A DNA stretch of 64,000 bases from Marsupella aquatica (taxonomy: Eukaryota > Plantae > Marchantiophyta): contig OZ316893.1 of NCBI GenBank assembly GCA_973895155.1, forward strand, positions 1 through 64,000. Direction: 5' to 3'. The translations under genes were made by a program, and so were the position numbers. The notes beneath the pieces were generated by a model, which did no database searches, had not been told where the DNA came from, and saw only the letters and a list, made by a program, of their open reading frames with translations. Below, piece by piece: positions 1,101 through 41,837 of this stretch (its first letter is position 1; each line of letters starts with the position of its first letter).

Positions 1101-1238
1101 CCTAGCCCCTCCAAAATGCGCACACAACAAACTGGGGGTCAAACTCACCCCCAATATTCGATAATCATACCAGTACTTAAAAAACTGGTATGCCACATGT
1201 GAAAACTGGGGATGACACTCTAAACCCTAAACCCTAAA
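991..1238 (+). repeat. 248-bp direct repeat, left copy (degenerate satellite unit + unique end + telomeric repeats)
   Basis: Matches 41534-41781 with one mismatch seen (tagcccct vs tagcccat). Ends ...ggggatgacactctaaaccctaaaccctaaa. Confidence 0.95.
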
Positions 1239-1674
1239 CCCCTAAACCCCTAAACCCTAAACCCAAAACCCAACCCTCAACCCAACCCTCAACCCTCAAC
1301 CCTCCTCCCAACCTCAACCCTCAACCCTAAACCCTCCTCCCAACCTCCCCATCCCAACCCCAACACACAACTCCCTAAACACCACACTCCTCTCAACCTC
1401 CCCATCCCAACCCCCTCAACCCCCCTCACTGTCAACCTCCTAAACCCAACTCAACACACACCTCCCCCAAAACACTCCTCTCAACCTCCCCATCCCAGCC
1501 CCACAACTCCCTCAACTTCCCCAACCCATCTCCAACACACAACTCCCTCAACCCCCCACCCCCCAAAACACTCCTCTCAACCTCCCCATCCCAACCCCAA
1601 CACACAACTCCCTCAACCCCCCACACTCTCAACCTCCTAATCCCAACTCAACACAGAACTCCCTAAACCCTAAA
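1219..1674 (+). repeat. Interstitial telomeric tract (CCCTAAA) grading into degenerate C-rich telomere-like repeats
   Basis: ctaaaccctaaaccctaaacccctaaa... then CCCTCAA/CCCAAC variants, closed by ccctaaaccctaaa at 1661-1674. Confidence 0.9.
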
Positions 1675-3330
1675 GCTGCAAAAGACTTTAATTGGAAATG
1701 TTATGGGAGTGCGGGATTACAAGTGAGCCACCATGAATGCTAGTGGTGTATGAATACTTCAAAAATAATGTTATGGGAGCCTACGGTAACCAGCCGTAAG
1801 TAACCCTAATCAATACTAGCGGAGTTTAAAGGCTTTAATAATAATGTTGTGGGAGTCCAAATGTTGAAACGTCAAGACCGTGCAGTGCATGTAGGAGACC
1901 GTGCACTAGGCTCCCTGAAATGGCCAGAAGACCGGCCTCATTGCACGCGCAGTGAGGAGAAGATATGTACAGGTTGCACGAAAATGTATATATATGTACA
2001 GGCCTCATTGCACGCGCTGTGCAGAGAAGATATATACAGCTCCCTAAAACCCTGAAATGGCCTGAAGACCGGCCTCATTGCACGCGCTGTGCAGAGAAGA
2101 TATATACAGGCGTAGGCTGAGGAGCAGCAACAACGGGAGGAAGCTGAATTACAACACCTGGCATTACGGGCCCAAGAGTTTGAGGCGGATCGGGTATAGA
2201 CCCGAGTGTGGATTAGCATTGAGTCTAGAAAGTAAATAATATATCACAACTGTACAGAGTGAATTAGTTCTAATCAGGAAGCCTGGTCTTCTTTAATTTG
2301 TATCTCATTTCCCACGTCCAAAATTGAATGGTGACACATTTGATGCTAACGGAGTTTAAAGGTTTCAACATGAAAGCTATGGGAGTCTACGGTTTAACCG
2401 GAAATGTTATGGGAGCCTCCACTTTAACCGGAAATGTTGTGGGAGTCCATATGCTGAAACTTGGAGACATACCATGCATCGCATGTGAGACACAGCCTTT
2501 ACATAAGAGTCTTGTATGGTGGGTTGGACACTGAAGGTGATTTGGGTCCTAGGAGTGTCTGAATGGAGTTGCAACACAGATGGAGGTGAGTAGCAAGGCA
2601 TGAATACCGCAACCATGGATGTTGTACAGAAGACAAGCTCCATCACTGCAAACTCGGCCTGAAACCATGCCACTGCCACCAGTAAGCATAAAAAATGCAA
2701 CCATTCGAAAACGCCTTCGCTCAAAGACTGCATCCGACAATGACTCGAATCCATCACTTGCTGCAATTATTGACGACGTCAGTACGCCATCCAAGCGACG
2801 CAAGATTCAGGACCCTAAACCACCAGTAAGCATAAAAAACGTAACCATTCGGAAACGCCTTCGCTCAAAGACTGCATCCGACAATGACTCTAATCCATCA
2901 CTTGCTGCAATTATTGACGACGTCAGTACACCATCCAAGCAACGCAAGATTCAAGACGTAGAAGGGAATTTGGAGGTGGCGAGCACTGTAAAGGACCAGA
3001 TTGAAGGCCAGCGACGGGAATTCTCAAAGGCCAAATGAATGCTTCCCGACAAAAATACCAACCCAACAATAATGCAGAAGGGAATTTGAAGGTGACAAGC
3101 ACATTAAGGAACCAGATTGAAGGCTGGTACAGGAATTCTAGAAGCATTGACCAAGCTTTGTTTCCTTTGTATTTCTCACGAACCTAATTGAATGGTGACA
3201 CTTTTGATGGTAACGGAGTCCAATGGTTTCAACATGAATGTTATAGCTGCAAAAGACTTTAATTGGAAATGTTATGGGAGTGCGGCATTACAAGTGAGTC
3301 GCCATGAATGCTAGTGGTGTATGAACACTT
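1674..3330. repeat. 86-bp direct repeat (1674-1759 / 3245-3330) plus dispersed AATGTTRTGGGAG motifs
   Basis: agctgcaaaagactttaattggaaatgttatgggagtgcgg... occurs twice. Core motif at ~1697,1767,1843,2403,2433,3268. Confidence 0.85.
2619..3038 (+). other. Short ORF containing a 144-bp (48-aa) tandem duplication; function unknown
   Basis: PPVSIKNxTIRKRLRSKTASDNDSNPSLAAIIDDVSTPSKxRKIQD occurs twice (nt 2676 and 2820). The duplication is certain; coding status is not. Confidence 0.4.
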
Positions 3331-4139
3331 AAAAAAAAATTGTAGAAGAACAGTAGGGTCTTTTGAATCCAATTTTTGGAATATTCCATCTTTATAGGGG
3401 TTAATTTTATTTTTTTAAACTTTCATTTTAGGGGGTCCAAGGCCTAAAAACATCGCAGGTGATGGGGAGGTCCCCATATAGTGAGACCCCCGAGGCTGTG
3501 CGGAGAAGATATGTACAGATTGCCTCAACAATTTAAATTAAGAGGACTTGTGATGTTAGACACGCCCATGGAGGAGTTGCGAAGTGAAGGTGGGCAAAAG
3601 GAGAGCAAAGGAGAGCAAAAGGGTGAAATAAGGGAAGAAGACACACAGGGTGGGGTCTGATGGCCATGGAGTCAGTCATGGGTGGAGGTGTGGGCAGTTC
3701 ATGGGGCAGTTAGGCGCTGCCACGGTCTGGCCAGTGTGGAGAGGCCTGGGAAAGGAAGGGGAGAGGGAGAAAGGGTAGGACAGGTATTTAAGAGGGATTG
3801 AAGAGAGTCAAGAGGGGCCAAGACTGATAAATAACCACCATTGGCCTCCATACATGCAACAACCAACCAAGCTTCCTTCCCCAAAGGAAGAAAAGCCCCA
3901 CCACACAATCACCAACCAAAAAACAAATATGACCTCTTAAAAAACACAAAATGGCAACAAACGTTCCAAAAACTGTCTCCCCACCTCCTAAAAAACATTA
4001 ATATGGAAAGAGGGAAAACCTTTCCAAAAATGAAAAAAAATAACTCACTTTGGTCATCCGCCTTTCTCCATCCCTAGCCATCATGCTATACCTATCTGAT
4101 TAAGTGTAGGCTGTACCTATATAACTTGCACATCCTGTA

Positions 4140-4440
4140 CCACTATCAAATGTACTCATATGAATTGTACTAACTGTCTACTCTTGAGACAAGTACTCTT
4201 AATAAACATTTGCTTTGGTTTATAGCTTGCCCCCATTTTCAGATAATTCACTCTATCAAATGGACTCATATGAAATCTACTAGCTACACTTGAGCCACAT
4301 ACTCTTATACATTTGCTTTAGTTTATAGCCTGCCCCATTTTCAGATAATTCACTCTATCAAATGGACTCATATGAATTGTACTCATTACACTTGAGAGGC
4401 CTCCGCATACTTAGAAATGGACTCATATGAATTGTAGAGA
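4140..4440. repeat. Short local duplications
   Basis: tgccccattttcagataattcactctatcaaatggactcatatgaa occurs twice (second copy exact, first with one extra c); actcatatgaa core occurs four times. Confidence 0.75.
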
Positions 4441-7230: not shown

Positions 7231-7332
7231 GAAAATGCACGTCAAGTGTTAGGGGGTGTCGAGTATGTTATATTACAGCAATTTTTTTGTGAATTCTTCA
7301 CTTTCAGGATGGTTTTCAAGTAGTCTATACTT

Positions 7333-7860
7333 TCGTACCAGGAACATCTCTGCCTTCTTTCTCGATTGAAGGCGGACCACTCCGGTGGTAGATGCACACA
7401 TGTCACCTTCCACTCTGACTGGTTTGTCAACTTCCTCTGACGTACTATTATCAGGAGCTCTGTAAAATGATGCATTATCCTCAACTGCTACTTTCTCTAA
7501 GCTCTTGCTCTCTGTTTCATGCAATTGCTCTTCATTCCTATCTACTAGTTCAGCATTCCCATTCACAGATCCTAGTCTACTGCTGCCATTCTTCTTCACG
7601 GTTGGTTTATCAGAGATTCCATTTACATGACCGAAAGAAACATCTGCTTGTTGTGGTCGCTTACGAGCCTCTAGGACGTCCGCCCTTGGAATGCCTGGAC
7701 TACTCGGGGTCCATCTATTTGTAGGTCCAGCAATATTTCCATTCAGGAGACCCAATCCATTGCTTGGCGGGGATGAATTCACAATTGGTTTACCTATCCT
7801 ATTAGAGAAAAACATTGCAGGCACCTTACGCCGCTTATTTGCACATCACCTTAAACCGTT
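7333..7860 (-). pseudogene. NADK2: Internal fragment of chloroplast NAD kinase 2
   Basis: VEGDMCASTTGVVRLQSRKKAEMFLVR is the characteristic NADK2 motif preceding the kinase domain. Similarity stops abruptly after it. Confidence 0.8.
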
Positions 7861-7865
7861 TAGGG

Positions 7866-10690
7866 CTTTGTGATGTGCAAATAAGACCAAGTTTGATGAT
7901 GGGAAGAACTTCGTCTTCAGGGAAAAGGCGAAGCTTCGGGTCAACACAGAAAAGGACCCGACCTTCGTCCAGCAGAGCACGAACAAAATCACTCAATATT
8001 ACAACATCATCTTCCATATACTCTACGGGCCGTCTTCCTGTAACAAGCTCCAGTAGCAAAACTCCAAACCCATACACATCGCACTTCTCTGTAATTTTCA
8101 GGCTTTGACATGCAAACTCTGGTGCCATATAGCCCAAGGCACTCTGCATTTTACTGCTCATCACGTAGGAGTCCAGCTTTGGTAGAAGCTTGGCGAGAGA
8201 GTAATCTGATAGACGTGCCTCGTACTCTTCATCGAGTAGAATATTGGGATTTCACATCGTAATGTCATAATGTATGAGTTGTGGGGTACATCCATGGTGA
8301 AGGTGAGCAAGCCCGTTAGCTGTACCTAGGGCAATCTTTAAATCTCACGCGCCAGCTCAATGGGGGCTCATCTTCTCGCCTTTCGTGCAGTTGGCTGTAC
8401 AAGTTACCATTCTGGAGGTAGTCATAGACCAGAAGCTGTAGTTGCTCTGTCCAGTAATAGCCTTGCAAGCTTACAAGATGTGGGTGCCTAACATTTCCGA
8501 GCATATGAACGACCTTTTCAAAATCGTCGCGGGTCTTAACAAGCCTCCCCACCATCAGCTTCTTCATAGCAACAGTCTCGCCATGCGCCAAAACGGCTTT
8601 GAACACGGTTCCAAAACCGCCCCTGCCAATCTCACAGTCTTTGTTGAATATTGCGTGTGTGCTTGTCATCCAGTAATCCGACTTGGGGTCACTTTTCCGA
8701 GTGAACATCACCAATTTCCCCATTGCCATCTCAGCGGTATTTGGAGATTGAGGATCGCTGTCGACGGTGCAGACATTCAACCTGCGCCTCGTCTGGGTGT
8801 ACATGTTTAATAGAGTGACCATAATCACTCCCAAAGCAATAGCCGCTGCAGCCGAAATAGACGTAATAGCCAAGACGCTCAATATAGTCTGACTTCTCTT
8901 GCTCTTGAACAGGGGAGAGAGGCCTCCTGGCTGTGAATTCGGGTCGTTTGGATTTATGATGAGTGGGTTGGGAAATGTTGAACACGAGAGGTTGATAGCT
9001 GATCCACAGAGCCCCGTATCCTGGTCAAACACAAAGGTGTTCGTATGATTAAAGACACCACCAGTGGGTATAGGACCCTGCAATTGATTATGAGAGACGT
9101 TTATCGCTTGAAGATTTTGCAGTTGGCCCAGATCGTCTGGTATCTGTCCCGTAAAGAAATTGATCGAGAGGTCCAGAAACTCCAGGTTTACGAGCCGGCC
9201 TAATTCGTTCGGAATCGGTCCTGTCAAATTGTTTTGAGCAATATTCAAGTCTACAAGAGAAGTCGCATTGCCAAGCTCGCCTGGCAAGGAGCCATTGAGA
9301 AAATTGCCATTAAGCCGCAATATTCGAGTTGAAGGAGCGTTTCCTAAGCTGGCGGGAATGGTGCCGATCACATAGTTGTCGCTGAGGTCAAGGACAGCCA
9401 GAAAAGGCAGAGAATCGAAGTCAATTGGAACATACGACGCTAGCATGTTTCCGGATAAGCTCAAATAGTGGAGGCTGGAGCAGGACGAAAGATTGGGGGG
9501 AACAGCACCGGAAAGGCCATTGTGAGATAGGTCCAGCCACTGTAGATTTTGACAGCCGCCATTTGAAGAGTAATCGGGAACACCTCCAGTGAAGAAATTG
9601 TTGGACAGACGGATCACCCGCGGAAGAGTAGTCAGCTTGAGGGGAATGTTCCCAGTGAGGTTATTCCAACTGAGGTCGATGGTCTCCAGCGTCTGCAGGG
9701 ACCGGAAAGACGAAGGGATCTGGCCTCCAAATTGGTTCCCAGCCAAATTGAGCGATGTCAAACATATCATGTTGAAGAGCCAAGACGGGATGCTACCGGA
9801 TAAATAGTTCCAACCCAAGTCAAAGTACGGAGAGAAACCTCAAGTTGCCCAGCTGGAGTGGCAGCTCGCCAGAGAAGTGGTTCGAGTTCAGAACGAGTTC
9901 CTGCAGGAGCCCACAGTTGCCAAGCTCTGAGGGGACTTGCCCTGAAAAGCCATTTCCCTGGAGACTCAGGGAAGTCAGATTGGTCAAGAAACCAACACCC
10001 ACTGGAATTTGGCTTGAGAGAGAATTGTAGGAAAGGTCCATAGTTTGCAAACCTGCCAGAGAAAGAATTAGAAGAGAAGTTCAGTTCCTGCAGTTCCAAG
10101 CAAGAGCCAACAGAGAGAGGTATCGGGCCCTTAAGCCGGTTATTAGCCACAGAGATGTACCGCAAGCTCTGGCAATCGTTTGAAAAGATCTGCGGAGGGA
10201 GTGGTCCCGAGAGACCATTATTGGACAGATCAAGGGAGTAGAGGCTTCCAGCATTGCCAAATTCAGACGGTATGGTACCGCTGAGGGCGTTGTGACTAAA
10301 GTTCATCGATCCCAGCTTTGGAATCTGGGCAAGCTCTGGGTTGATGATGCCGGAGAAGTTGTTATAAGCCAAGTTGACACTCTCCAGCTAGTCTAGCTTC
10401 AGCAGAGCTCTCCCGATTGACCCCAAAAGAGAGAGTCCTACCAGATTCAACTGTGTGACTCTGCCACTGCTCGGTCTGCAGATAACTCCGTTCCACTTGC
10501 ATGGGTTGGAGTCGTTGTCATTCCAAGAACTAAGCACCGAGTTGGGATCGCTTGAAAACAAGCAGAGCCATTACATCGTCGCTGATGAGCGGCACTGCCC
10601 CTGTGCTTGCCACTCCGCCAAGAAGTAAATGCACCAGACATGAAACCCATAGCTAGCCTCCAGTCGCTGCCCGGACGTTTTTACAATGCT
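7866..10690 (-). pseudogene. LRR receptor-like kinase pseudogene (IRK/PXC2-type)
   Basis: Signal peptide, DDVMALLVFK..WNDDDSNPCKW cap, plant LRRs, TM segment, EIGRGGFGTVFKA, QSALGYMAPEFACQSLKITEKCDVYGFG. Several frameshifts/stops; C-terminus truncated after CTSQ. Confidence 0.92.
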
Positions 10691-10989
10691 GTGAAATAGG
10701 TGAATACGGAGACCTCCGAGCAATAGGACGTGATTTCCTCAAGAGCGCCATTTCTGCGTTTGTTGATGACTCTCTCATGATTGGATCAAATGATCCCTCA
10801 TCAGCTGCAGAATTGGCAACAAGCTGCTGTGGCGCTGCTCTCCTTTGTACTGCGCGTGGGAAGACCGAAATCTAGCGACATTTTCAAACCATGTATTGTG
10901 CAGCCGTTATGAGCAACTCGCATCCTTTGCTCACGAATTAACTGTCTCCTGTCACGCCCACGGTTTTGCTGCTGAACTCTGCAGTTTCA

Positions 10990-11208
10990 AACGTGGAGCT
11001 GGGTGAACTGGCCGCTAACAAGCTTTTCAAGTTGGAACCCGGTAAGCCCTATACATATGTGCTGCTCTCCAATATCTATGCTGCAGCTGGGAAGTGGAAG
11101 AAGGTGTCATCTGTGCGCACTATGATGCAACAGAGAGGTGTTCGGAAGGAGCCTGGACGTAGCTGGATCGAAGTTCATAACAAGATCCATGAATTTGTGG
11201 TGGGGGAT
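10990..11208 (+). pseudogene. PLS-class PPR protein E/E+ domain fragment
   Basis: NVELGELAANKLFKLEP..YVLLSNIYAAAGKW..VRKEPGRSWIEVHNKIHEFVVGD. No PPR array before it and no DYW domain after it. Confidence 0.88.
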
Positions 11209-13828: not shown

Positions 13829-14050
13829 AAGTATGCAGAGAATGATGTCATTGTCCCGGCAAAGTTAAAAGAGTTTCTGAACGCAGAGCAAGGTGAAACC
13901 GAGGTTACATTGGGTGATGCCGAGAAGATCATCAATGAGCAGATGGCTCACGAGAATACGATATTGATGAAAGCGAAGCACTCCTTCACATTGGATGCAT
14001 TCCTCCGGTACCTTCTCGACCCGGTTGTCAACATTGCTTACTTAAACAAG
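13829..14050 (+). pseudogene. Phosphoinositide phospholipase C EF-hand exon fragment
   Basis: KYAENDV...LKEFLNAEQGE...DAEKII...FTLDAFLRYLLD followed by a GT donor at 14051. No X/Y domain exons were found. Confidence 0.75.
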
Positions 14051-14475
14051 GTGAGACGAAACTAGATGCGTCAATTTTTCCGTTTCTCATGTCTCGAGTA
14101 AGGCACGAATTAGAGTGGAGCCAATCCAGTACTTCACGGTGAATTCTAGCACACTATTGTGGCTGCGGTAGTAGGCAGATCGGTGCAGATTGACTTGTGT
14201 GTTCCGACAATGAGTGATTCTATAAAGCTGTGAAGAGGGTCTATATATGGCGGATCTTTATAGGTACGGATGGCTCATAGGCAGTTTTGTTGACTTTCGT
14301 GGTCGGAAGCTGCCTTCAATCTGTCCCGAGATAAGGCTGAGAAATGCTTGCCATATTCAGGGGAAACTAGGTTCTCATTGTGTGTAAATTAAGGCTTCAA
14401 GAAAAAATGACTAGTCTTGAGGGCTATAGTTCAATTTTTATTGATCATTGATCTGAGGTTTTGTCCTTCTTCTAC

Positions 14476-20622: not shown

Positions 20623-21265
20623 ATGATTAACAAAATATCGAAGCGCCTGCCGATTTGCAACAAAGGGAGTAATGGGCCGAATGACCCCAATGAACCAGGA
20701 TCTGTAGGCGCCTCAACAACTGGAGGGGTTGGACCTGCAGCTCTGGCCCCAGCCCCGGCTGCTGCATATTTAGTTAATCTGCTGCGGGAGCTAGGGCTGC
20801 TGTAGGCCCCAGTAGCAGGAATAACGCTTTGATCAACGGCATCGGTACCCCAAGATTTGGACCAGGAAAGGAGAAGTTGTTACCAAACTTGACTCACAAT
20901 GGTTGAGGTCCCTTTTTCTATCCTCTGCCTGCTTTCAAAGACCTTCCAAATTCTGACAGGCAGAACTTGTTCATTAACAGCTCCATCTTTGCTGTTACAC
21001 TTTTGACTTCACTGACCCGACAAAGAATGTCAATGACAAAGAGATTAAGAAGCAAACCTTAGTGGAGCTGATGGAAGATGCGACATCGGGAACAGGGAAG
21101 TTCACGGAGGCTGTGTTCGAAGATATCACCAAAATGCATGTAACAAGCCTGTTTCGTACGCTACCCCCCTCCTCTCATGAAAATACCGGAGTTGATAACT
21201 TTGATCCCAAAGAGGAGGATCCAACCTTAGAACCGGCATGGCCCCATCTTCAAATACTGTACGAG
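20623..21265 (+). pseudogene. 5' fragment of PP2A B' (B56) regulatory subunit
   Basis: PLPAFKDLPNSDRQNLFI, LCCYTFDFTDPTKN..KEIKKQTLVEL, LFRTLPP..EEDPTLEPAWPHLQILYE. Contains frameshifts/stop and is truncated. Confidence 0.88.
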
Positions 21266-25845: not shown

Positions 25846-26169
<324 letters not shown>

Positions 26170-31104: not shown

Positions 31105-32452
31105 CTAGATCATAGACCCTTGCTCTGGGCACTGCGGCTGAGACAAAGCAGGCTTAAGGATGAAGTCGGTGATGATCTCCAGAATGAAGGATTGCCTGTC
31201 TTTACCAGCGGGTAGAATGGCCCCGAGATGCCCATGATCCCTGAAGATAGCCTGAGACAATACCCTGCACAGATTCCAACCGCTATTTGACCGCCAATGT
31301 AGAATGGCACCTGTGGTGTACAGCATTGCAATTGACCCCTGGGTTTAGTGCAATCCATCATCTGTTGTTGATTTGACTTGATCTCGATCCTCTACGACCC
31401 CGTACCCAACTTCCACTAAAGAATATGCTTGATGGAAAGATTGCTTATCTAGGCAAGCATTCTGGCAAAAGCACTCACATCTTTCCAGGGAAAATGCCGC
31501 ACAGTTGCAAAGGCAACGGTGACCGAAGGATTCAAGTGTGCACCTGAAATGTGACCCACTGCATATATCATGTTCATGACAACAATCCCAAAAGATAAAG
31601 ACATGCCCACATGCGTCACGGCTCCATTGATCGAGCTTCGCATCCACTACCGCAGATCCACAATCAGTGAACACCAGGATGAAAGTAGCAATGATTTCTG
31701 CTCCAACCTGCTTCAATACAAGGATTTCTCCTGGTTAGCTGGTGAGATTGGCCGTTGGCATTGTTCTCCTCAAGGGATGTGGTCTTCACTCACTTATTGC
31801 ATTGACCCCATTGAGGATGTCTACGTTCAGATTCATTTCGTTCGTATAAGCTTCAAAGGAATGTTATTTAGCTTCCCAACAGCAATACTGCGGACAGTAT
31901 CACAAGCTCCCAAGTATTAATCGGGATTAATTACAAGGACTTATGTGAGGACTGGGTAGAGGGGTCCATGACATTCATTTGAAACTTTTAAAAAAGCCTG
32001 TAGTAGTCCTCACCGAGAAGTTCGGAGCGAGTGCTTTCAATGCAGCATGCAAGCCAAAAAAGATTAATGTGCGAGGAAGAGGTTCCAAGATGTGGTAATT
32101 GCCAAAAAGATGAGAGATCTTGAGAAACTATGCTACTACAAAAACAAGCTAGCATAGTACAGAGATGAAATTTATCAGTGTGCAACCGGTAGTAGGAACT
32201 TACCTTTCGCATAAGACATGTATATGGCAATTTCAAGGATCCCAAATATCCACACCCTGGTTGTTCGTCTGCGAGAGGCATATCGACGGTCTGGTCAAGG
32301 GGAGAATTCTCAAATCGCTGGCTCAATGACGGATGTTTTGCTGCAGCAGGAGGAACGTCAGTTGGAACACGGGTATCGTTCCCCAACACATAATGGTCCT
32401 TGGCTTGCAGTTTTGCTCTTCCTGCCATCTGGTCGTTCGAATGATCTGCCAT
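31105..32452 (-). pseudogene. NIP-subfamily aquaporin pseudogene (5' exons only)
   Basis: VGAEIIATFILVF, MIYAVGHISGAHLNPSVTVAFATVRHFPWK, VPFYI. Introns retained; frameshifts; second NPA box absent. Confidence 0.9.
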
Positions 32453-33643
32453 TTTTCTGGCTGCAAACAGATTGTCGTCTGCTTACAAGTAGTTCTGGCA
32501 CCTGCAGCACGTACGTACCGGCACCTAACGATGATCCTCTACCGTTACATACATTGACATCCTTAATTGGAAGGAGCCAGACAGTGCAGCAACCCCACTA
32601 CTGTGAACTTGTTAACCCGTGAAGAAGTAATTCTGGCTCGTTCAACTTGGGATGTCAGAACAGGACTGCAATATAGGTCATGCACATGCGTGCACAATTG
32701 TAAGAGAGCAACGATGAAGAAAGCTGAAGCTTCATTGATTGCGGAATCCCACAAATCGATCACCACACAAACCTATTCTCTAATGAGACAACCAGTCATT
32801 CTCAATCCTGATATCTCTCACACTAGCACACTTCGCCCCTTGTAACATTCGATTGTGCTGACAGGTCTAGCTAGGCAGCAAGTATCACAATCACCACTTC
32901 CACATTTGTGACTTCTAGTCGGTCCCTCCCTCTGTCTGAGACCATAAAACTTAGCATGTAGACCCCAGTTGCCACCATGATTTCACAACCCTTCTATATT
33001 CCCAACCTCTGTCAGCCCTTGCACTCTCTAGCTCCATTTGGGACCCTTTTTGAAAAGTGGGAACAAAGATTGAAGACTACTTCTGCCCCCCTTGGGGCCT
33101 CTCTCCTCGACCAGTGAGAAGAAGGACAAGACAAAGTTTAGGGTGGAGAATGAATACTGCACATCAAAGCACCGAGAGGGGGGGGGGGGGAACGGAGCAG
33201 AGAAATAAACTCAGTGATTTAGTTTTCACAGGCCTGCCAAGGCAAGATGCATGAAACAAGCTCTCTAATACCATGATGAATTTTGAATACTTTACTCAAC
33301 TTGATCATCCCACGTAAAGTTAACAAGAAATAGCTTTGCCCCAAACTGACTCCTAAGTCACAAAATAGGAGTAGGAAATAATCTGGGTCTAACAAAGCAT
33401 ATCCTATTTAAACTTCAAACAGCTAGAGAGAGCTGACCTGCATGCCAATGTGATCTACATTAAGAAACCGAAGCTAAAGTATGGATCTCTCCCCTGAAAC
33501 TTTCCCACCGAACACCATACTTCCATCTAAGTAGTCTGATATTCATTTCACCCTTCATCTCCTGAACTTCACTTTTGAAATCTTCCAAGTAATTTACCAC
33601 ACTGTCCGGCCTCTATAAGAATTCTTCTCAATTCTCTGATTGA

Positions 33644-36600
33644 TCACCGAAATTCAGGATACTTGATCCTCACAATGGTTGCTACAAGACGCATAAAATT
33701 GTTGCCCAGAGCCTCAGGACTTGTAGACACAACCCATTCACACAGCTCCTGGTCACTTTTCCCTTTGATTTCAGGAATTGCTCGGAATAAATCGCTCTGT
33801 ATGTTATCAAATCGCCATGCCTTCCACACAAAAAGCCGCAATCTCTCTCCTGATTCATCTTCACACTGATCTCCATACAGCCCTTCATGAAATCTCATCC
33901 CACTAGGCTGGTGTGGGAAGTGACACTTGAAACAAGTGTCTGGTCGAGAAGGAAACTTGTTATCGCAATTTGCACGGTTGTGTGTTCCTAGACACTTCAC
34001 ACATCGTCCCCGTACATAAGGACATTGCAAAATACCATGAGGAACACTCTTTGAGAGGGGACTCCAACACATCAAGCACTTTTTCCTATCCCCAGCAAAT
34101 TTACGGATGATACAAATCTTATTCATGGCTTCGTCAATTCTTTGTTTGATGAGTGTTGGTCGAGCTCTTGCCACAACCGTGGTTGTGGTTCCTTTGCCTT
34201 GGGATGATCCGAGTGATGATGCTGGTGTTGTTCTTTCACCTGGTGCTGTAACCCTAACACTCTGTCCTCCTTGTATGTTTTGGGAGATGCTCCCCTGAGA
34301 TACAATTTCAACCACTTCTGACCTAGCTTGTGATAATTCTTCGGCCTCATATTCCATTGGTAGTTCCTGATTGTCTGCTGCTTGGGAGCATATGTCACAA
34401 GGAATTGCATCCGGGATGAGGTAACACATCTGTGGCTTACCATCAACGCTAGCATGTAGTGCAAAGCGACGACACATTTTTGTCTCCTCAATCCATTTGT
34501 TTGGAATCTTGAAGTTGGAGTCCATCCTCAAGGCCTCATTGCGGTAGCTGGAGTTAGAAACAACAGTGCTTATTGCTAATAAACCATCACGCCCAGCTCG
34601 GCCAGATTCCTGATGAAATTGCTCAAAGGACCTGAAATTACCTCTGTGAATTACAAGTCTGATTGACTTGTAATTATAGCCAGAACCAATGACCCCAGTT
34701 GCCACCATGATTTCACAACCCTTCGACTCCCACTTCTTCAAGGTTTTCACGGTGTCTGCTGTGCTACATCCTGCATGCAAAAATGTACAGCACAAGTTCC
34801 TGGCTTCGAGTAGCTTTGCCATCTCTTGGACTTCATCTCTTGTTAGGCAATAGACAATGGCCCGGTCATGAACCAGGCTAGATCTCTTCCAATCTTGAAG
34901 CTGTCTAACTATTTCTCCATCCATGTCAGGCACTTCCACAACCATGTATCGGATGTTTGGCCTAACAGTAGAAGAACGAACCCAATGTAATCTTGAACCC
35001 AAAGTCAGTTCGATATCAGATTGTTGTGTGGGTGGTAATGTCGCTGTTAATCCTATAATTTGACAGGGAACTTTCATTAGAGAAATCAGATTTCTCATTT
35101 TTGGACGGAAATGACACTGTAGTGTATGAATCTCATCAAAAACAATCGAATGCAATCTTTGTGTAGCTTGCAAGTGGTTTGCAAAGACACCAAATGTATC
35201 TGAATCAGCTGCAGTCACGATAGATACAAAAACAATTGCAGGTGTTACTCCTATCCCGAGTGCAAATCCACTTGTAAACACAGTGTGACCAATTCCTGCT
35301 TTTCTGCATTCAGATAAGTGACCCGATATGAGAGATTTGAATGGGACTACCACAATCACTGTTTTGTCCATCAATGTGGAAGGGGCCATGAAAATCAATG
35401 ACTTTCCTGTTCCAGTGGGAAGTACAGTTACAAAATCCACAGTGTTTTCAATAGCCAAAGCAACAGAGATTGCTTGTTCAGTTGACCTCCACCTTTTGTG
35501 ACCCAACTTGTGTAGAGCTATGGAAGCTCTTATACTTGTGTCGTGACAGATGTGCAGTGCCGAATCAACATCTCCCACAACTGATGTTGATGGTTCTCCA
35601 TAGGCAGGGCAATAAACAACCCTTGTCTTGCTTGGAACATGATCAATTTCAAGCTCAATGTCATGACGTGGACGTAGAACAGTAGTGGTTCTTGGAAAAG
35701 GATCTAGTGTGACTTCCCTGCAACCTGTTGTTGAGCTATCCAGATGAATCAATCTTGGGGACTTATCCGAAAGATTAAGCAATGCATGCCACTTATCTGT
35801 AAATATTCGGAATGCTCTCAAGAGATGTCCATCAATAGCTCTTAAATCTTTTACACTTTGAGCATAATGATGTCCCATTGTAGCTGTTGTATGTCCACCT
35901 GCCACATCTACAATATCATCAAGATCTTGAGTGCGTTGGTCTCGAATCTTTTCTGAAAAAAATGCTGCTAGGTGTCGGTATTCTGAAAGCCCGAATGTGA
36001 CTCCACAACGCTTAAAGAAATTGTTGTGTATGCTCTTGGAAAGATCATGTGCATCTTGCTTTTTATCCATATCAACGAACCAACAATCATCATAATTACG
36101 GGCAACCTCCTTTCCCCATATTTTCTGTGCAACATAAGATTGTGTAGGCCTCACCAAACAAAAGTATACCAGAAACAGAGTTCTTAAAGAACTTGGAAGA
36201 AACCGTATAAGTGGTTTCATTGGAGCACCTGTATTTGCACCTTTATGATAGGTTTGAAAGAGCGCTATTGTATGATGCTCTAACAATTTTGTTGTTGGAT
36301 CATCATCTGGGCCTGCTGTTGCCCAATAAAATGACCTCTCGCTTGTGGCTGTGTTGCGAATCAAGAAACTGTTGTACTCTTCGCCCCTTGCTGGTAGACC
36401 GGCAGTGAAATGTATAAGCAGATTCAATTTTTCTTGTAAATCAGAGCAAGCAGTCATCCACTTATAAAGTGTGATATCATTCCAAATGACATCATTTCGA
36501 TCTGTCCGCCCGAGAATAAAGTGTCCTCTAATCTTAGGATCAACAAACAAGTGTGTTAGTAGATCGAGGCCATGTTGCTGAAGAATCCGGTTGCGAGGAT

Positions 36601-38605
36601 CTATGACAAAGTTGTACCCAACTTCTGTGTTGTTGACATCGTCGTAAATAGCACGACTCTCCTTAAGTAATTTGTCAACCCAATCTGTTCGGAGACCAAG
36701 AAGCACATCACAATTTAAAATTGAGTGGGCTTCTTGAATAATAGCATGCACCATATCTCGAAAATTGTCGATTGTAATAGATTCACCATCAACTAGACAT
36801 GCTGTATTATTGGCATTCAATGGTACTAGTCTTGGCCATACTGGAGTCCCTGCAGTAATCCTATTTGCCAAGCGCAGAGATTGCGATACAATAGTAAATG
36901 GAGTAGGTAGTGCTATGTCACTTAAATATTGAAGAAGTCGATCAGCTTCTTCATTAAGAATGGTGCTTGGGTTTTTATGCCAAAAACATTGTGCAAGGTG
37001 CATCAAAATGGTCACCCTAGCCCAATATTTGAGTATCGCCATTGGTTGTGTAAGATGACGAACATGCCAAAATGAATACTCTTCTGCTTCTGGACTGTGG
37101 CCAACTTTTATGAGTGAATGTAAAATAAGAAACCGAGTGAAAATACAGTTCGCTGCTCTTCCTGCTTCAAGTGTTGCAGGCATCTTTGGAGTCCAAAGAT
37201 GAATCAACACATTATGTAGAACAGCTAAATCAACATTGTCAATAGAATTGTCATCTAATTCATTGAGTTGACTCATGAATTTTTGAAGAGCAATTTCCAT
37301 TTCTTCTCTGTTTGTTTGAAAAACATGAATGTCCGAACTAAGCTCATTAGAAGATGATCGAAGCAAGCAGAGAATGAATTCTGTGATTATATCACAGTAC
37401 CTACTCCTTGATGATTTTGAGTTCAATTGATTGAATCCCACTGCAACATCATCATTGATATTTGTCTTCTCCACTAGTCTTCTCAATCTGTAATCCACCT
37501 CTTTAAGAACCAAATCTTGTACATTGTTCATGTAGATAGTCACCACTTGACTGACATATGAGAGTGGAGATTTGCCCTGCTTTGGTGGTGGGAGCATCTG
37601 TGCTTTCACCTGCAAAAATGGTACCCCTTTTGGCATGAATTGGGCCGCAAGCTCATGCCATTTAGACTGTGCTAGCCATGGAGTTAGCTCAGCAATTGGA
37701 GGTAGAAGTTCTAACCGCAAAGACTGAAAATGGTCATCAAACTCCTTTGTGATTATAGCCCTCAAACTTTTAGATTGCAAGTGACAGTCATCCCCATCGA
37801 GATTGAGATTGTGATGTTGAACACCAAAGTATTTGAGGCCTATAACACGATCTGAGAGGATTTGAACTTGGCATTCACTCTTCACATTGACATAGGACAA
37901 CTCAGGATGTTTTCTCAAACGATGATTGGACATTGACCTTTTCTCCCCACAATAGTAGATGCATTGTTTGCAAGAAAAGCCGTGTCGAATGACAACACCT
38001 GGTACTGGAGAAAGCAATGCAGCTGGTGGATCTCTTGTATATGGTAATATGGATGTATCATCCATGCTTGTAAAAGAGAACTGTTGTAAGCTCCTCAATA
38101 GTTGATGACTGTCGTAGTCTGATGCTATTCGATGACACCTTGATTTCTCCCGTTGATGCTTTTGAACATGATGAATGATATTGATATTTTCATTGTATAT
38201 GAGTACCGAATGACACTCTATACATACAAGGAAAACCAATTCCTCATGACGAACAACGCAGAGATTAACACTTCTCAAGATCTCTGGTGTACCAGAATGA
38301 TCTGGTGTAATGCACAATCCTTCATTAACCGCCAAGTCGTGTGGATCAACAAATCTTTCGACTTGATTAACATGGATTGTGTCATAGTGTCGGCGAAGAC
38401 TATCGCCACGTGTGTAATACTGAGAACACATATTATCGGGGCATGCGAACATCCCATTTTCAGACTTGTGGAGGATCTCCACAGTGCCATCGCAATGCTT
38501 GAATTTGAACGTCATCCTGTGCTCAAAACGTTTGTGAGCATCTCTTGCTCTTGCTGATTGAAAAATCTGCTCACACGCACTACATGGAAAAATGGTTGTC
38601 TCCAT
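33644..38605 (-). CDS. 1653-aa Zn-finger/DUF3505-like + tyrosine-recombinase-like + RecQ helicase fusion (telomere-linked-helicase type)
   Basis: Two N-terminal C2H2 fingers, then CxxC..H..H blocks. Recombinase-like motifs GLPAR(740)GEE, YHK(788), YR(877)H, GGH(905)..Y(914). Helicase motifs PTGTGK(1068)S, DE(I)H at 1157, TATLPP, Q(1332)ESGRAGRDG. RQC CRR..C..CDIC and C-terminal Cys/His knuckles. Confidence 0.92.
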   Translation of the reverse strand: METTIFPCSACEQIFQSARARDAHKRFEHRMTFKFKHCDGTVEILHKSENGMFACPDNMCSQYYTRGDSLRRHYDTIHVNQVERFVDPHDLAVNEGLCITPDHSGTPEILRSVNLCVVRHEELVFLVCIECHSVLIYNENINIIHHVQKHQREKSRCHRIASDYDSHQLLRSLQQFSFTSMDDTSILPYTRDPPAALLSPVPGVVIRHGFSCKQCIYYCGEKRSMSNHRLRKHPELSYVNVKSECQVQILSDRVIGLKYFGVQHHNLNLDGDDCHLQSKSLRAIITKEFDDHFQSLRLELLPPIAELTPWLAQSKWHELAAQFMPKGVPFLQVKAQMLPPPKQGKSPLSYVSQVVTIYMNNVQDLVLKEVDYRLRRLVEKTNINDDVAVGFNQLNSKSSRSRYCDIITEFILCLLRSSSNELSSDIHVFQTNREEMEIALQKFMSQLNELDDNSIDNVDLAVLHNVLIHLWTPKMPATLEAGRAANCIFTRFLILHSLIKVGHSPEAEEYSFWHVRHLTQPMAILKYWARVTILMHLAQCFWHKNPSTILNEEADRLLQYLSDIALPTPFTIVSQSLRLANRITAGTPVWPRLVPLNANNTACLVDGESITIDNFRDMVHAIIQEAHSILNCDVLLGLRTDWVDKLLKESRAIYDDVNNTEVGYNFVIDPRNRILQQHGLDLLTHLFVDPKIRGHFILGRTDRNDVIWNDITLYKWMTACSDLQEKLNLLIHFTAGLPARGEEYNSFLIRNTATSERSFYWATAGPDDDPTTKLLEHHTIALFQTYHKGANTGAPMKPLIRFLPSSLRTLFLVYFCLVRPTQSYVAQKIWGKEVARNYDDCWFVDMDKKQDAHDLSKSIHNNFFKRCGVTFGLSEYRHLAAFFSEKIRDQRTQDLDDIVDVAGGHTTATMGHHYAQSVKDLRAIDGHLLRAFRIFTDKWHALLNLSDKSPRLIHLDSSTTGCREVTLDPFPRTTTVLRPRHDIELEIDHVPSKTRVVYCPAYGEPSTSVVGDVDSALHICHDTSIRASIALHKLGHKRWRSTEQAISVALAIENTVDFVTVLPTGTGKSLIFMAPSTLMDKTVIVVVPFKSLISGHLSECRKAGIGHTVFTSGFALGIGVTPAIVFVSIVTAADSDTFGVFANHLQATQRLHSIVFDEIHTLQCHFRPKMRNLISLMKVPCQIIGLTATLPPTQQSDIELTLGSRLHWVRSSTVRPNIRYMVVEVPDMDGEIVRQLQDWKRSSLVHDRAIVYCLTRDEVQEMAKLLEARNLCCTFLHAGCSTADTVKTLKKWESKGCEIMVATGVIGSGYNYKSIRLVIHRGNFRSFEQFHQESGRAGRDGLLAISTVVSNSSYRNEALRMDSNFKIPNKWIEETKMCRRFALHASVDGKPQMCYLIPDAIPCDICSQAADNQELPMEYEAEELSQARSEVVEIVSQGSISQNIQGGQSVRVTAPGERTTPASSLGSSQGKGTTTTVVARARPTLIKQRIDEAMNKICIIRKFAGDRKKCLMCWSPLSKSVPHGILQCPYVRGRCVKCLGTHNRANCDNKFPSRPDTCFKCHFPHQPSGMRFHEGLYGDQCEDESGERLRLFVWKAWRFDNIQSDLFRAIPEIKGKSDQELCEWVVSTSPEALGNNFMRLVATIVRIKYPEFR

Positions 38606-39328: not shown

Positions 39329-40800
39329 GTTTGGTTGTAGATTGGGTTAGGAAATGTGGGTTGTGGCATGGGTTTAGGGTCTTATGTTGGGAGTTGAGAA
39401 AGACTGGAGTTACAAAATTTGGTGTGGTGTTGGGGCTGAGGGGGTTGGGAGTTGTGTGTTGGGGATTGAGGGGTTGTGGGTTCAAGGGGAAGTTGTGTCT
39501 TGGGTTGGGTAGGTTGAGAGTTGTATGTTGGGGAGCTTGGTTGCAGATTGGGTTAGGAAATTTGGGTTGTGGCATGGGTTGGGGGAGATGTGTTGGGGGT
39601 TGAGAAAGTCTGGAGTTAGGGAGTTAATTTGTTGTAGAGTTGGGTGTTGGGGGTTAAGGGATTCATTTGGGGAGTTGTGTCTTGGGTTGGGTAGGTTGAG
39701 AATTCTGTGTTGGGAGTTGAGTAAGTTGGGGAGTTTGGTTGTAGGTTAGGTTAGGAAATGTGGGTTGTGGCATGGGTTGGGGGAGATGTGTTGGGGGTTG
39801 AGAAAGTTTGGAGTTAGGGAGTTAATTTGTTGTAGAGTTGGGTGTTGGGGGTTGAGGGATTCATTTGGGGAGTTGTGTCTTGGGTTGGGTAGGTTGAGAG
39901 ATTTGTGTTGGGAGTTAACACAGTTTGGAGTTACAAAATTTGGTGTTGTGTTGGGGTGTGAGGGGGTTGGGAGTTGTGTGTTGGGGATTGAGGGGTGTTG
40001 GGGATTGTTGGGTGTTGGGGGTTGAGGGATTGGAAGTTGTGTCTTGGGTTGGGTAGATAGATAGTTGTATGTTGGGGGTTAAGGGAGTTGGGGAGTTATG
40101 TGTTTATCGGTTGAAGGAGTTTGGAGTTTGGTTGTGGGTGGGGGTTGACATTGTGGGTTGGGGGAGTCGTGGGTTGGGGATTGAGGGGTTGTGGGTTCAA
40201 GGGGAAGTTGTGTCTTGGGTTGGGTAGGTTGAGAGTTGTGTGTTGGGAGTTGAGTGAGTTGGGGAGTTTGGTTGTGGGTTGTGGCATGGGTTGGGGGAGA
40301 TGTGTTGGGGGTTGAGAAAGTCTGGAGTTAGGGATTTAATTTGTTGTAGAGTTGGGTGTTGGGGGTTGAGGGATTCATTTGGGGAGTTGTGTCTTGGGTT
40401 GGGTAGGTTGAGAGATTTATGTTGGGAGTTGAGAAAGTTTGGAGTTACAAAATTTGGTGTAGTGTTGGGGGGCTGAGGGGGTTGGGAGTTGTGTGTTGGG
40501 GATTAAGGGGTTGTGGGTTCAAGGGGAAGTTGTGTCTTGGGTTGGGTAGGTTGAGAGTTGTGTGTTGGGGGTTGAGTGAGTTGGGGATTTAATTTGTTGT
40601 AGAGTTGGGTGTTGGGGGTTCAGGGATTGGAAGTTGTGTCTTGGGTTGGGTAGGTAGACAGTTGTATGTTGGGGGTTGAGGGAGTTGGGGAGTTATGTGT
40701 TGGAGGTTGAAGGAGTTTGGAGTTTGGTTGTGGGTGGGGGTTGACATTGTGGGTTGGGGGAGTTGTGGGTTGGGAGTTGCCGGGGAAGTTGTTTGTTGGG
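39329..40800 (+). repeat. G/T-rich degenerate telomere-like block with ~130-200-bp higher-order repeats
   Basis: GGGTTG/GGGAGTTGTGTGTTGGGG motifs; the block tgtggcatgggttgggggagatgtg... recurs at ~39568, 39766 and 40280. Confidence 0.92.
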
Positions 40801-40814
40801 ATAGAGACAACCAT

Positions 40815-41390
40815 GTTGTAAAAGATGGACAAGAAAGATGATAAAGAAAATCCAACACAAAAGGGAAAATCAACACTAAACCTTTGAACCTTTGATCCCT
40901 GAGTATAGACAGCCACAACAAGGGCAGACTGACACATTGGGCAGTCAGTTGTAAAAGATGGACAAGGAAGATGATAAAGAAAAGCCAACACTTAGTCTAG
41001 AAAGAGGGGAAATTCAGAGAAAATCTGGACTGTCAATAAGAAGAGATAGATGGGCAAGATCATGTGCAAGGACTTCAATTCAATCCAATCTTCAATGGAA
41101 AATCCCAGTTCTTACAATATACGGTTAACATAATTATGTATACAAATCATCATTCCTGCTTATATGTCACAAGTATCTCCTCGACAAGACAAGTCAACAA
41201 TAAATATCAACCTGCTTATCCGCCACAAGTATCTCCTCGATAGGACAAGCCAACAATAAATATCAACCGTGAAAAGTCAAAAATAAATGTTAGCCGTGGA
41301 AAGTACCTCCTTGACACGACAAGTCAACAATAAATATCAGCCATCGAAACAATAAATATTAGCATGGAAAGTCAACAATGAATGTTGGCC
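40815..41390. repeat. Short subterminal repeats
   Basis: gttgtaaaagatggacaagRaagatgataaagaaaa occurs twice; gacaagYcaacaataaatatca occurs three times. Confidence 0.75.
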
Positions 41391-41533
41391 GTGGATTTTA
41401 AATGAACGGGCCAGATGCTTGTATACACACGACCACACCATCTTCTTCACGACCGCCACTACACTTGTTACAGGCCTCCAAAACAGCCACACAGCCGCTG
41501 CACTACGGCCGTAATGCGCCGATAATATATATA

Positions 41534-41781
41534 GGAACCCCTCCCCCACCCTCACCCCCAGCTCGTTACACCCCCAAAAGCTACAGTAGGGTGGCACTCG
41601 CCCCCTGGTACACGCACCCCGAAAATTGGGGGGTACCCCCACCCCTAGCCCATCCAAAATGCGCACACAACAAACTGGGGGTCAAACTCACCCCCAATAT
41701 TCGATAATCATACCAGTACTTAAAAAACTGGTATGCCACATGTGAAAACTGGGGATGACACTCTAAACCCTAAACCCTAAA
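41534..41781 (+). repeat. 248-bp direct repeat, right copy
   Basis: Near-identical to 991-1238, including the telomeric tail. Confidence 0.95.
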
Positions 41782-41837
41782 CTGATGGACCACTTCGAAA
41801 ACAAGGGGCGAGAACTCGGGGCCAAACTCGGGGCGAG

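Follow-up and report, generated by a model that had tools for sequence, protein, structure and literature searches.

The window analysed here, the first 64,000 bp of contig OZ316893.1 of Marsupella aquatica, is best read as harbouring a giant, recombinase-driven mobile element of the TLH type, which would extend from 1220 to 41763 within a telomere-like tract; we put the probability of this reading at roughly 0.5. Both junctions touch CCCTAAA repeats, and the DNA between them holds a disordered set of host gene fragments together with two intact TET-like ORFs (Table 1). The initial annotation had likewise proposed a giant element, and its recombinase-helicase call, the position of that gene as the first, the cargo-like interior and, in run X1, a terminus beside telomere-type repeats all speak for it, while the TLH layout of the gene and the abundance of the satellite had escaped it. 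Counted against a single element are that the contigs mapped showed neither an empty site nor a circle nor a further full-length copy, the excess depth of the terminus in X1, the X3 contigs that lead into satellite and a TET-like piece outside the proposed boundaries (55631-55990), and further the few telomeric (3/58) and missing TET-like (0/58) relatives, the null results of Foldseek and Pfam, a lost HxxR histidine and an absent arginine.

Table 1. Features located in the window, with strand and distinguishing remarks.
Feature	Position	Strand	Remarks
121-bp satellite array	1..1101	+	9.2 copies, 94% matches; runs off the window
Left 249-bp repeat copy	991..1239	+	Last satellite unit, 118-bp terminus, 20 bp of CCCTAAA repeat
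CCCTAAA repeats decaying to C-rich array	1220..1670	+	CCCTCAA and CCCCAACAC motifs; likely left end of the element
Host gene piece (ORF)	7276..7845	-	No Pfam match above cut-off
LRR receptor-like kinase, nearly full-length, frameshifted	7838..10570	-	LRRNT_2, LRR and kinase matches
PPR protein piece, E motif	10942..11247	+	PF20431, E 4e-22
Topoisomerase II piece (~60 aa)	within 11686..12268	-	PF00204, E 5e-8
Weak BTB/SPOP-like piece	within 11686..12268	-	SPOP, E 0.39; other frame, adjoins topoisomerase II piece
Phospholipase C EF-hand piece	13784..14062	+	PF09279, E 3e-7
TET-like ORF 1, intact, intronless	15057..16433	+	458 aa; HxD...H; 35% GC
PP2A B56 regulatory subunit piece	20978..21274	+	PF01603, E 2e-26
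Zinc-knuckle gene piece	25846..26169	-	PF13917, E 9e-8
TET-like ORF 2, intact, intronless	27402..28844	+	480 aa; HxD...H; 32% GC
Aquaporin (MIP) piece, two frames	31348..31734	-	PF00230, E 1e-12 and E 0.016
Likely 34-bp filler copy	32961..32994		Exact copy of 34691-34724
Recombinase-helicase gene, TLH-type, intact, intronless	33644..38605	-	1,653 aa, stop-free ORF
G-rich telomere-like tandem array	39329..40790	+	Upstream of recombinase-helicase gene
Right 249-bp repeat copy	41534..41782	+	Proposed element end 41762/41763, then ~3 CCCTAAA units
Third TET-like piece, broken	55631-55990		Outside the proposed element

The predicted recombinase-helicase gene

The 1,653-aa ORF is the first from the right end and reads inward (38605-33644), just as had been claimed for it, and the protein carries in order C2H2/OrsD zinc fingers, a predicted tyrosine recombinase, DEAD and Helicase_C domains of the RecQ type, and a Cys-rich C-terminus. 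The OrsD/DUF3505 match (E 3e-7) covers residues ~120-233, with further CxxC...H...H motifs visible at the N-terminus, and the helicase is matched by Pfam DEAD (E 7e-17) and Helicase_C (E 2e-15). The helicase sequence contains the motif QESGRAGRDG, which we take to be that of RecQ, and one homologue of the protein has been named RecQ by its source.

The resemblance to recombinases was found by the structural aligner alone: no Pfam recombinase family matched any of 43 aligned homologous domains (E 0.05), a profile search of PDB sequences found no recombinases, and Foldseek gave no match for the domain model. This model (pLDDT 86.7), aligned with VIA against 48,161 chains, returned tyrosine recombinases or integrases in all of its top 9 rows (Z 7.7-10.5), the best match reaching Z 10.5 with an rmsd of 3.2 over 163 residues and XerH reaching Z 9.4 over 264 residues, and XerH, Cre and IntI align with the modelled domain over 257-264 residues. 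The predicted catalytic set is R740, K788, R877, H905 and Y914, kept among 120 homologous domains in 119, 120, 117, 115 and 116 cases, respectively; these domains do not conserve the His of the HxxR motif. Judged from the model, the domain with R-K-R-H-Y folds like Xer/Cre recombinases and is a predicted tyrosine recombinase with putative catalysis; the fold and the conserved active-site residues support the recombinase-helicase call of the initial annotation.

As far as layout can tell, and by layout rather than by alignment to named TLH proteins, the gene belongs with the fungal TLH family: both have C2H2 fingers at the N-terminus, a RecQ-type helicase immediately preceded by a conserved domain, and C-terminal Cys/His motifs. 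The conserved domain stands in the position of the TLH domain (~250 aa, upstream of the helicase) and is common to basidiomycete OrsD-helicase proteins, no named TLH protein being among the homologues returned; for the middle domain of fungal TLH proteins, the parts of the literature consulted give no published function. Fungal TLH genes are described as preceded by telomere-like repeats, as sharply bounded on their upstream side and as pointing with the 3′ end towards the telomere (PMC1635262, in part). Here, too, telomere-like repeats precede the start and the 3′ end lies along the G-strand direction of telomere repeats, the G-rich array at 39329-40790, 0.7-2.2 kb upstream of the gene, standing where fungal TLH genes have their helicase-associated repeats (PMC1635262, in part). 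TLH genes are recorded in 5/5 homokaryons of one Agaricus variety and 0/4 of the other (excerpts of PMC7473861). In contrast to the fungal genes, the copy in the window comes from a land plant and has 32 kb of cargo behind it.

The read and contig mapping of runs X1, X3, X5 and X6 covered 32000-44500. In X1, a single 4,607-bp contig shows 4 differences over a span that takes in most of the gene and 700 bp upstream of it. There is likely more than one gene copy, since both alleles at 37826 occur in X3, while at 35217 the window is matched by none of X1, X3 and X5. Run X6, which bears the same species label as X1 and has no cover over most of the gene and terminus, was considered as a case of presence/absence and set aside because its listed pieces are ~5-10% diverged, flank included.

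The repeated terminus and its satellite

The junction of GGGGATGACACT with CTAAACCCTAAA, which the initial annotation had described as duplicated, has exactly two occurrences on the + strand (1208-1231 and 41751-41774), and the spacing of 40,543 bp between the repeat copies was likewise borne out. The full repeat measures 249 bp (991-1239 and 41534-41782) and is identical at 248/249 positions, the sole mismatch lying at 1109/41652. The satellite array at 1..1101 belongs to the left neighbour, and its last unit plus 118 bp constitute the repeated terminus; this last unit is 99.6% like 41534-41645, compared with 85-88% for the satellite units. At the right junction the telomeric tract is 20 bp long (~3 units), and at the left ~45 bp of near-perfect repeat decays over ~450 bp. 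CTAAA is present at both junctions, although it is part of any telomere repeat, and a hairpin lies inside the right 249-bp copy ~30 bp before the junction. Rfam gave no match.

Contig depth is high at the right terminus copy in both X1 and X3. In X1 it amounts to 4,869 for the terminus against 182 for the gene, a ~27-fold excess in a measure that gives no true copy number; one contig contributes 4,621 of the 4,869 depth units and continues into a longer telomere-type tract, so that, within the dominant X1 contig, the terminus abuts telomere-type repeats as had been expected. In X3, on the other hand, 145 contigs go from the terminus into satellite and not into the upstream DNA of the gene. Because it ends a 121-bp satellite array far commoner than the gene, the terminus may be that of many non-autonomous copies or of a separate repeat.

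The latter possibility leads to a mosaic explanation, the main rival reading, which we consider less likely but worth weighing: the gene would lie in a smaller TLH element (~8-9 kb, 33.6-41.5 kb) within a region rich in repeats, the 249-bp pieces would be a separate, abundant satellite-ended repeat, possibly Helitron-like, and this repeat or general repair would have captured the host pieces and TET-like genes. The depth ratio in X1 and the course of most X3 contigs favour it, and the 99.6% identity of the repeats fits a homogeneous terminus family and needs no shared event, since at 1109/41652 the majority base is found in the left copy. Similar G-run and CCCTAAA motifs occur in loci L045 and L053, and a broken TET-like piece stands outside the proposed element. 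Helitrons begin with TC, end in a hairpin plus CTRR and insert between A and T; here a hairpin and a CTAA (CTRR) do lie at the junction, ~30 bp apart, but the T target base after CTRR and the TC start are absent at both junctions, the next base being A in each and no TC standing at 1224. Capture of gene fragments and tandem copies are Helitron traits (10.1101/2025.11.13.688278, in part) and fungal Helitrons carry TET genes (PMC12730594, in part), yet no Pfam match to RepHel (HUH plus Pif1) was found in the ORFs scanned, although non-autonomous Helitrons lack RepHel too.

What the mosaic leaves unexplained is a pair of related inverted arrays 38 kb apart. The array at 1220-1670 is related, in inverted orientation, to that at 39329-40790, the two sharing 22 14-mer positions, whereas 300 shuffles reached no more than 6 (dinucleotide) or 11 (trinucleotide). 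Related inverted arrays near both ends thus support, at the sequence level, the reading as one unit.

One element with 249-bp direct repeats, the alternative that the initial annotation had named with a repeat length of 248 bp, would arise if a circle bearing the terminus integrated by homologous recombination at a terminus-plus-telomere junction, so that the left neighbour would be the target, not a second inserted element, and 249 bp would be duplicated. The repeat takes in exactly 20 telomeric bases and diverges on both sides with 1 mismatch in 249, targets are abundant, and the same recombinase could form the circle. We nevertheless hold this to be improbable: copies of a homogeneous family would be highly alike in any case, a length of 249 bp is far above the 4-6 bp repeats given for Cryptons (PMC13465315, in part), and in this window alone the outcome looks the same as a head-to-tail insertion.

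Three joints (41536-41838, 41852-40964 and 41862-41518) hint at sister copies that have other terminal pieces beside telomere repeats; they were given no weight because repeats are involved and at least one has a 25-letter side.

Host gene pieces and TET-like ORFs in the interior

At least nine broken host gene pieces had been proposed for the interior, and seven of nine have Pfam matches above the curated cut-off, namely to LRR receptor kinase, PPR E motif, topoisomerase II/gyrase B, PI-PLC EF-hand, PP2A B56, zf-CCHC_3 and MIP. The other two stand less firmly, the BTB/SPOP-like match being weak and the piece at 7276..7845 presumably resembling chloroplast NAD kinase 2; the zinc-knuckle piece may be CXIP4-like. 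Seven host gene families thus fall within ~32 kb, against none above cut-off among 110 ORFs of the right flank (43.6-55.4 kb), a weak contrast that nonetheless tells against the mosaic. No reverse transcriptase (RT) was matched among the interior ORFs scanned, RT being found only in a Gypsy element beyond 59 kb.

The two ORFs announced as dioxygenases are indeed intact and paralogous (26% identity, E 6e-56), with the iron triad motif reading HAD...H in ORF 1 and HVD...H in ORF 2, but their identity as dioxygenases, and as TET-like ones, is weakly supported from sequence. Pfam gave one sub-threshold match for ORF 2 (PF20515, E 0.12), and Atlas feature matches pointed to the PF20515 cluster (0.90) and the Tet_JBP cluster (0.88) within a range of 0.88-0.92 and at a low recognition score. 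The TET-like ORF had no homologue, no PDB sequence match and no viral locus in the searches run, and its structure model (pLDDT 34) is unusable. Neither ORF has an arginine 10-15 residues after the second His, where TETs bind 2-oxoglutarate. In each region the five longest inverted repeats listed include no convincing TIR pair around either gene, and hence no nested TIR transposon was identified. It is generally held that TET enzymes are missing from land plants.

Relatives and host

The closest relative of the 1,653-aa protein comes from the liverwort Calypogeia fissa (62%), in which a second homologue lies on a 46.8-Mb contig, whereas the named distant homologues are basidiomycete. In a midpoint-rooted tree of 110 domains and 262 columns, which left out nine near-duplicate cluster members and short domains, the window and C. 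fissa pair with support 0.996 within a 15-member clade (0.974) that is free of the five named fungal proteins. Since most tree members have no known host, we make no claim of fungus-to-plant transfer. Related metagenome loci number 58, in 40 groups at 98% identity; many are 75-95% alike, most are broken or partial and several have common upstream DNA, so that by sequence they behave like a repeat family. At least 2 tandem perfect TTTAGGG/CCCTAAA units occur in only 3/58 of these loci and a TET-like match in 0/58, all being short contigs of distant relatives. Loci L036 and L037 share an upstream boundary with no telomeric repeats beside it, and viral contigs contained no relative of the recombinase-helicase.

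The stretch might also not move by its own enzyme. It could instead be a subtelomeric segment spread by ectopic recombination, with a TLH protein that helps to maintain chromosome ends; contamination with fungal DNA or a misassembly would be the least likely variant. The usual view of TLH genes is that they serve telomere maintenance in duplicated subtelomeres (PMC1635262; 10.1101/2024.02.27.582403; both in part), the named distant homologues are basidiomycete, and none of the contig pieces listed for 32000-44500 spans the whole interval. However, a predicted recombinase active site conserved in full, the many dispersed and decayed relatives without telomeric repeats, the C. fissa pairing, the land-plant gene pieces around the gene and the 4,607-bp X1 contig make such a non-mobile origin very improbable. 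Because homologues exist in C. fissa and the gene lies among pieces of plant genes, fungal contamination was rejected.

Proposed mechanism and significance

Under the preferred reading of one TLH-type element, the zinc fingers would bind the inverted arrays and the recombinase would cut and rejoin at the element ends, giving a circle. Much as Cryptons and Starships use bases shared with their targets, this circle could insert into telomere-type repeats by way of the short string CTAAA. The helicase may open the G-rich repeats or drive copying, and insertion next to the end of another copy would produce the head-to-tail arrangement. The extra termini could come from non-autonomous relatives whose satellite arrays are longer, the TET-like genes might counter DNA methylation, and the cargo may have been acquired by template switching. 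As a wider proposal, to which we give somewhat less than an even chance, TLH genes would be the transposases of an unrecognised tyrosine-recombinase-helicase superfamily that homes to telomere-type repeats in fungi, protists and bryophytes, the window holding a recently active 40.5-kb member with TET-like anti-silencing genes and a large non-autonomous family sharing its end.

The function of TLH genes has been unsettled for about two decades, and now that the protein is seen to have a recombinase fold and a complete predicted active site, a single tyrosine mutant could put that function to the test. The present copy, being intact, in a land plant and provided with candidate ends and cargo, would be a usable substrate to show excision and target choice; the portion of the TLH literature consulted reports no land-plant copy. 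If the reading is true, bryophytes possess a cargo-capturing plant counterpart of Starships, a giant element with TET-like genes of its own by which pieces of host genes are shuffled, and a recombinase aimed at telomere repeats and moving 40 kb would be of interest as a tool.

Comparison with known mobile elements

Yeast Y′ elements measure 5-7 kb, carry no captured cargo and, as far as we are aware, have no known recombinase. They resemble the window in that a helicase gene faces the telomere and tandem units are split by telomeric repeats (PMC1635262, in part). Starships, reported from filamentous Dikarya (PMC13465315, in part), are alike, if the proposed end is right, in the inward-reading recombinase gene that comes first and in the tens of kb of cargo behind it. 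Starships also have short direct repeats at both ends and empty-site alleles; the window has CTAAA at its two junctions, a string that every telomere repeat contains. They differ in that here the recombinase is fused to zinc fingers and a helicase, the ends lie in telomere-type repeats, the cargo is mostly broken gene pieces and the host is a plant; neither the whole protein nor any of the 43 aligned homologous domains matched the DUF3435 captain (E 0.05). Cryptons share a DNA-based, tyrosine-recombinase way of life without long TIRs and possibly with short shared end bases, but they are simple one- or two-gene elements, in contrast to the helicase fusion and 40-kb span seen here. No DUF3504 or other Crypton family matched in the recombinase domain, and the literature consulted in part on Cryptons describes no helicase fusion.

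TATE of Leishmania is likewise a tyrosine-recombinase element, with tandem clusters and a fixed position in telomeric repeats (PMC6681497, in part). It is a retroelement with RT and RNase H, the hallmark of DIRS, VIPER and TATE, whereas neither was found in the interior ORFs scanned of the proposed element, which has a helicase and cargo. Fungal TET/JBP transposons (KDZ, Plavaka, hAT, EnSpm, Helitron and others) are, like the proposed element, mobile DNA with HxD...H dioxygenase genes, which in their case have been proposed to serve escape from methylation silencing (PMC12730594, in part). The 11 lineages listed use DDD/E or HUH enzymes and are all fungal (PMC12730594, in part), and the word recombinase is absent from the main text of that paper.

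Minor repeats

A 34-bp stretch inside the helicase gene recurs exactly in the DNA beyond its 3′ end, a copy that is likely a template-switch filler. The Gypsy element contains (TTTAGGG)4 at 59272-59299, which indicates that short telomere-type runs are not rare in this DNA.

Predicted recombinase-helicase gene and its relatives

The YR-RecQ gene is an open reading frame of 1,653 aa without stops, whose product matches OrsD/DUF3505, DEAD and Helicase_C in Pfam and has no match at residues ~240-1040. A homologue search with residues 280-960 retrieved 1,135 representatives (E <=0.001), and among the 120 of 171 stored homologues covering most of residues 691-960, a few near-duplicates included, the catalytic residues are retained in 119 (R740), 120 (K788), 117 (R877), 115 (H905) and 116 (Y914). 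The structure model of residues 280-960 (pLDDT 86.7) gave no Foldseek match; in a wide structural search, rows 1-9 were XerA, XerH, XerD, Cre, integron integrase and phage integrases (Z 10.5-7.7, three of the nine aligning across ~260 residues), with topoisomerase IB, Ndc10 and Flp ranked next. From this ranking and the retained R-K-R-H-Y residues, the middle domain is predicted to have the fold and catalytic set of a tyrosine recombinase. It bears no family name, because none of 43 aligned homologous domains has a match to a recombinase family in Pfam. A 34-bp exact copy of helicase-gene sequence lies 650 bp downstream of the gene (at 32961), suggesting template switching.

The overall layout of the gene matches that of fungal telomere-linked helicases (TLH), described as having C2H2 fingers and, ahead of the helicase, a "TLH domain" of ~250 residues, with no function assigned to the domain there (10.1101/2024.02.27.582403). 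In Magnaporthe TLH genes, telomere-like repeats lie directly upstream of the start with a sharp boundary, the gene 3′ end facing the telomere (PMC1635262), and the G-rich array in the window mirrors these upstream repeats. The TLH features open to testing, namely C2H2 fingers, a RecQ-type helicase core and upstream telomere-like repeats, are all present. Judging by position and context, its recombinase domain would correspond to the TLH domain, no named TLH protein being among the matches. The best match is a Calypogeia fissa protein (62% identity) and a further C. fissa homologue sits on a 46.8-Mb contig; the named distant homologues are basidiomycete. Together with a PPR E motif and an LRR kinase, the C. 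fissa homologues point to a liverwort-like host.

A metagenome scan yielded 58 YR-RecQ loci (40 groups at 98% identity) on contigs of 1-21 kb, distant relatives whose proteins are 30-50% identical; most of the loci are incomplete or disrupted. At the DNA level many resemble one another at 75-95%, and ~1.5-2 kb of upstream sequence is common to some, which is the pattern of a dispersed repeat family. At least two tandem perfect telomere units occur in 3 of these 58 loci and a TET-like match in none. Given such short contigs of distant relatives, a link to telomere repeats is thereby shown not to be general in this branch, but not to be missing from the window. At one locus, an ORF piece 2 kb from the YR-RecQ relative (L002, 14938-15375), which we take to resemble a Crinkler N-terminus, suggests a fungal or oomycete host.

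Proposed ends of the element and their abundance

The initial annotation had reported the junction of terminus and telomeric repeat twice, and indeed the 12-base end motif with CTAAACCCTAAA occurs exactly twice in the window (1208 and 41751), closing a 249-bp direct repeat. Its left copy consists of the final unit of the satellite array, then 118 bases of unique and 20 of telomeric sequence; the right copy has a single satellite unit only. Beyond the left copy, telomere-type repeats decay across ~450 bp, whereas the DNA beyond the right one is unrelated and contains another short run of CCCTAAA. A circle integrated by homologous recombination would leave such a 249-bp duplication, an explanation we consider unlikely. 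The true left end may be near 1676 instead of 1221.

Between the left tract and the right array in reverse complement, 22 14-mer and 11 16-mer positions are common, against maxima of 6 and 2 in 300 dinucleotide shuffles and 11 and 4 in 300 trinucleotide shuffles. Related inverted arrays at both ends look as recombinase or zinc-finger binding arms would be expected to look, and they count in favour of a single element.

Five public runs from three studies contain the stretch or part of it, and the window may derive from one of them. Runs X1, X3, X5 and X6 were aligned as contigs only, to 32000-44500, with the left junction and cargo outside this span. In X1, a single 4,607-bp contig (depth 182) spans most of the YR-RecQ gene and 700 bp upstream with four differences, two of them residue-changing (W513R and V1130E). 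Both alleles occur at position 37826 in X3, and X1, X3 and X5 are all unlike the window at 35217, which fits several near-identical copies, though a mixture of individuals could account for it as well.

Junction depth in X1 is 4,869, of which 4,621 comes from one contig carrying 14 extra telomere-type bases; the dominant X1 terminus therefore abuts telomere-type repeats. However, with X1 terminus depth ~27x that of the gene, and 145 X3 contigs running from 41534 into further satellite, the terminus is mostly unattached to the DNA upstream of the gene. Either many non-autonomous relatives have this end in common, or it forms a repeat distinct from the element. A smaller TLH element inside a mosaic made by a satellite-ended, possibly Helitron-like repeat is a less probable alternative.

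Putative cargo

Between the arrays, a scan of 222 short ORFs and the long ORFs found matches above Pfam cut-offs to seven host gene families, plus a weakly matching BTB-like piece, and we presume another piece to be NAD-kinase-like. All are broken, several below 100 codons, and some directly adjoin one another. The right flank (43.6-55.4 kb, 110 ORFs) gave no Pfam match above cut-off, a weak contrast with the interior.

The two claimed dioxygenase ORFs are intact, intronless and AT-rich, 26% identical and both with HxD...H, but their TET/JBP match is weak (Atlas; PF20515, E 0.12). No arginine was seen in them at what we take to be the 2-oxoglutarate-binding position of TETs, and a single-sequence structure model was not usable. 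A third, broken copy outside the proposed element, 51% identical to ORF 1 over 68 aa, adjoins a truncated Gypsy pol, and TET-like genes are therefore not exclusive to the element. In fungi, 11 transposon lineages carry TET genes, and a recombinase belongs to none of them (PMC12730594).

Proposed mechanism and classification

Gene, position, arrays, junction sequences and cargo are read here as a recombinase-driven element, with a probability of about one half. That the stretch is instead a non-mobile subtelomeric duplicate, or an artefact, seems very improbable. The element's protein would bind the arrays, and the element would be excised as a circle, with a few bases in common mediating its insertion into telomere-type repeats, as described for Cryptons and Starships (PMC13465315). 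The helicase may aid on G-rich DNA and the TET-like products might act against silencing. TATE is a tyrosine-recombinase element that can sit in tandem at a fixed position within telomere repeats (PMC6681497), and bryophyte telomeres are of the TTTAGGG type, with interstitial telomeric sequences also present in this group (PMC10856949). The proposed way of working is shared with Starships and Cryptons, whereas the defining protein tests of both were negative; if mobile, the element is a candidate new superfamily. A full-text search, most subscription papers lying outside it, found nothing linking telomere-linked helicase with tyrosine recombinase (and telomere), and titles, abstract openings and passages gave no published recombinase-RecQ element or plant TLH.

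Features of the window and of metagenome loci (L numbers)
Feature	Coordinates	Strand	Remarks
Satellite array, 121-bp unit	1-1101		9.2 copies
249-bp direct repeat	991-1239 / 41534-41782		1 mismatch
Left tract	1260-1675		
99-bp repeat	1671-1769 / 3242-3340		93%; just inside left end
45-bp family	1737-3251		four copies; just inside left end
144-bp tandem	2676-2957		in open frame; just inside left end
TET-like ORF 1	15057-16433	+	
Tandem array, 236-bp unit	17326-17989		
Tandem array, 72-91 bp	23560-23801		
Tandem array, 74-bp unit	24137-24344		
Tandem array, 77 bp	27195-27368		
TET-like ORF 2	27402-28844	+	
YR-RecQ gene	38605-33644	-	
G-rich array	39329-40790		
Second CCCTAAA run	41838-41862		
Very abundant other repeat, truncated	41882-43672		contig depth up to ~60,000 in X1; other copies have different DNA ahead of 41882
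Coiled-coil ORF	42006-43613	-	within abundant repeat
25-bp exact copy of Gypsy truncation-point sequence	45075-45099 / 56048-56072		11 kb apart; resembles 34-bp filler at 32961
Tandem array, 28 bp	48990-49147		
Broken TET-like copy	55631-55990	-	
Gypsy element 1	56033-58833	-	
(GTTTAGG)4	59272-59299		directly downstream of second Gypsy
Gypsy element 2	59339-62399	-	chromodomain
Perfect 109-bp inverted repeat	61231-61339 / 62275-62383		spacing 935 bp, in Gypsy pol region; likely inversion or assembly feature
G-run, short spacer, CCCTAAA repeats	L045 409-449; L053 690-737, 1510-1558		loosely resembles window terminus; upstream of truncated YR-RecQ pieces, orientation opposite to window's
Similar stretch	L038 151-385		76% similar
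YR-RecQ relative	L002 7881-13090		with introns, unlike intronless window gene
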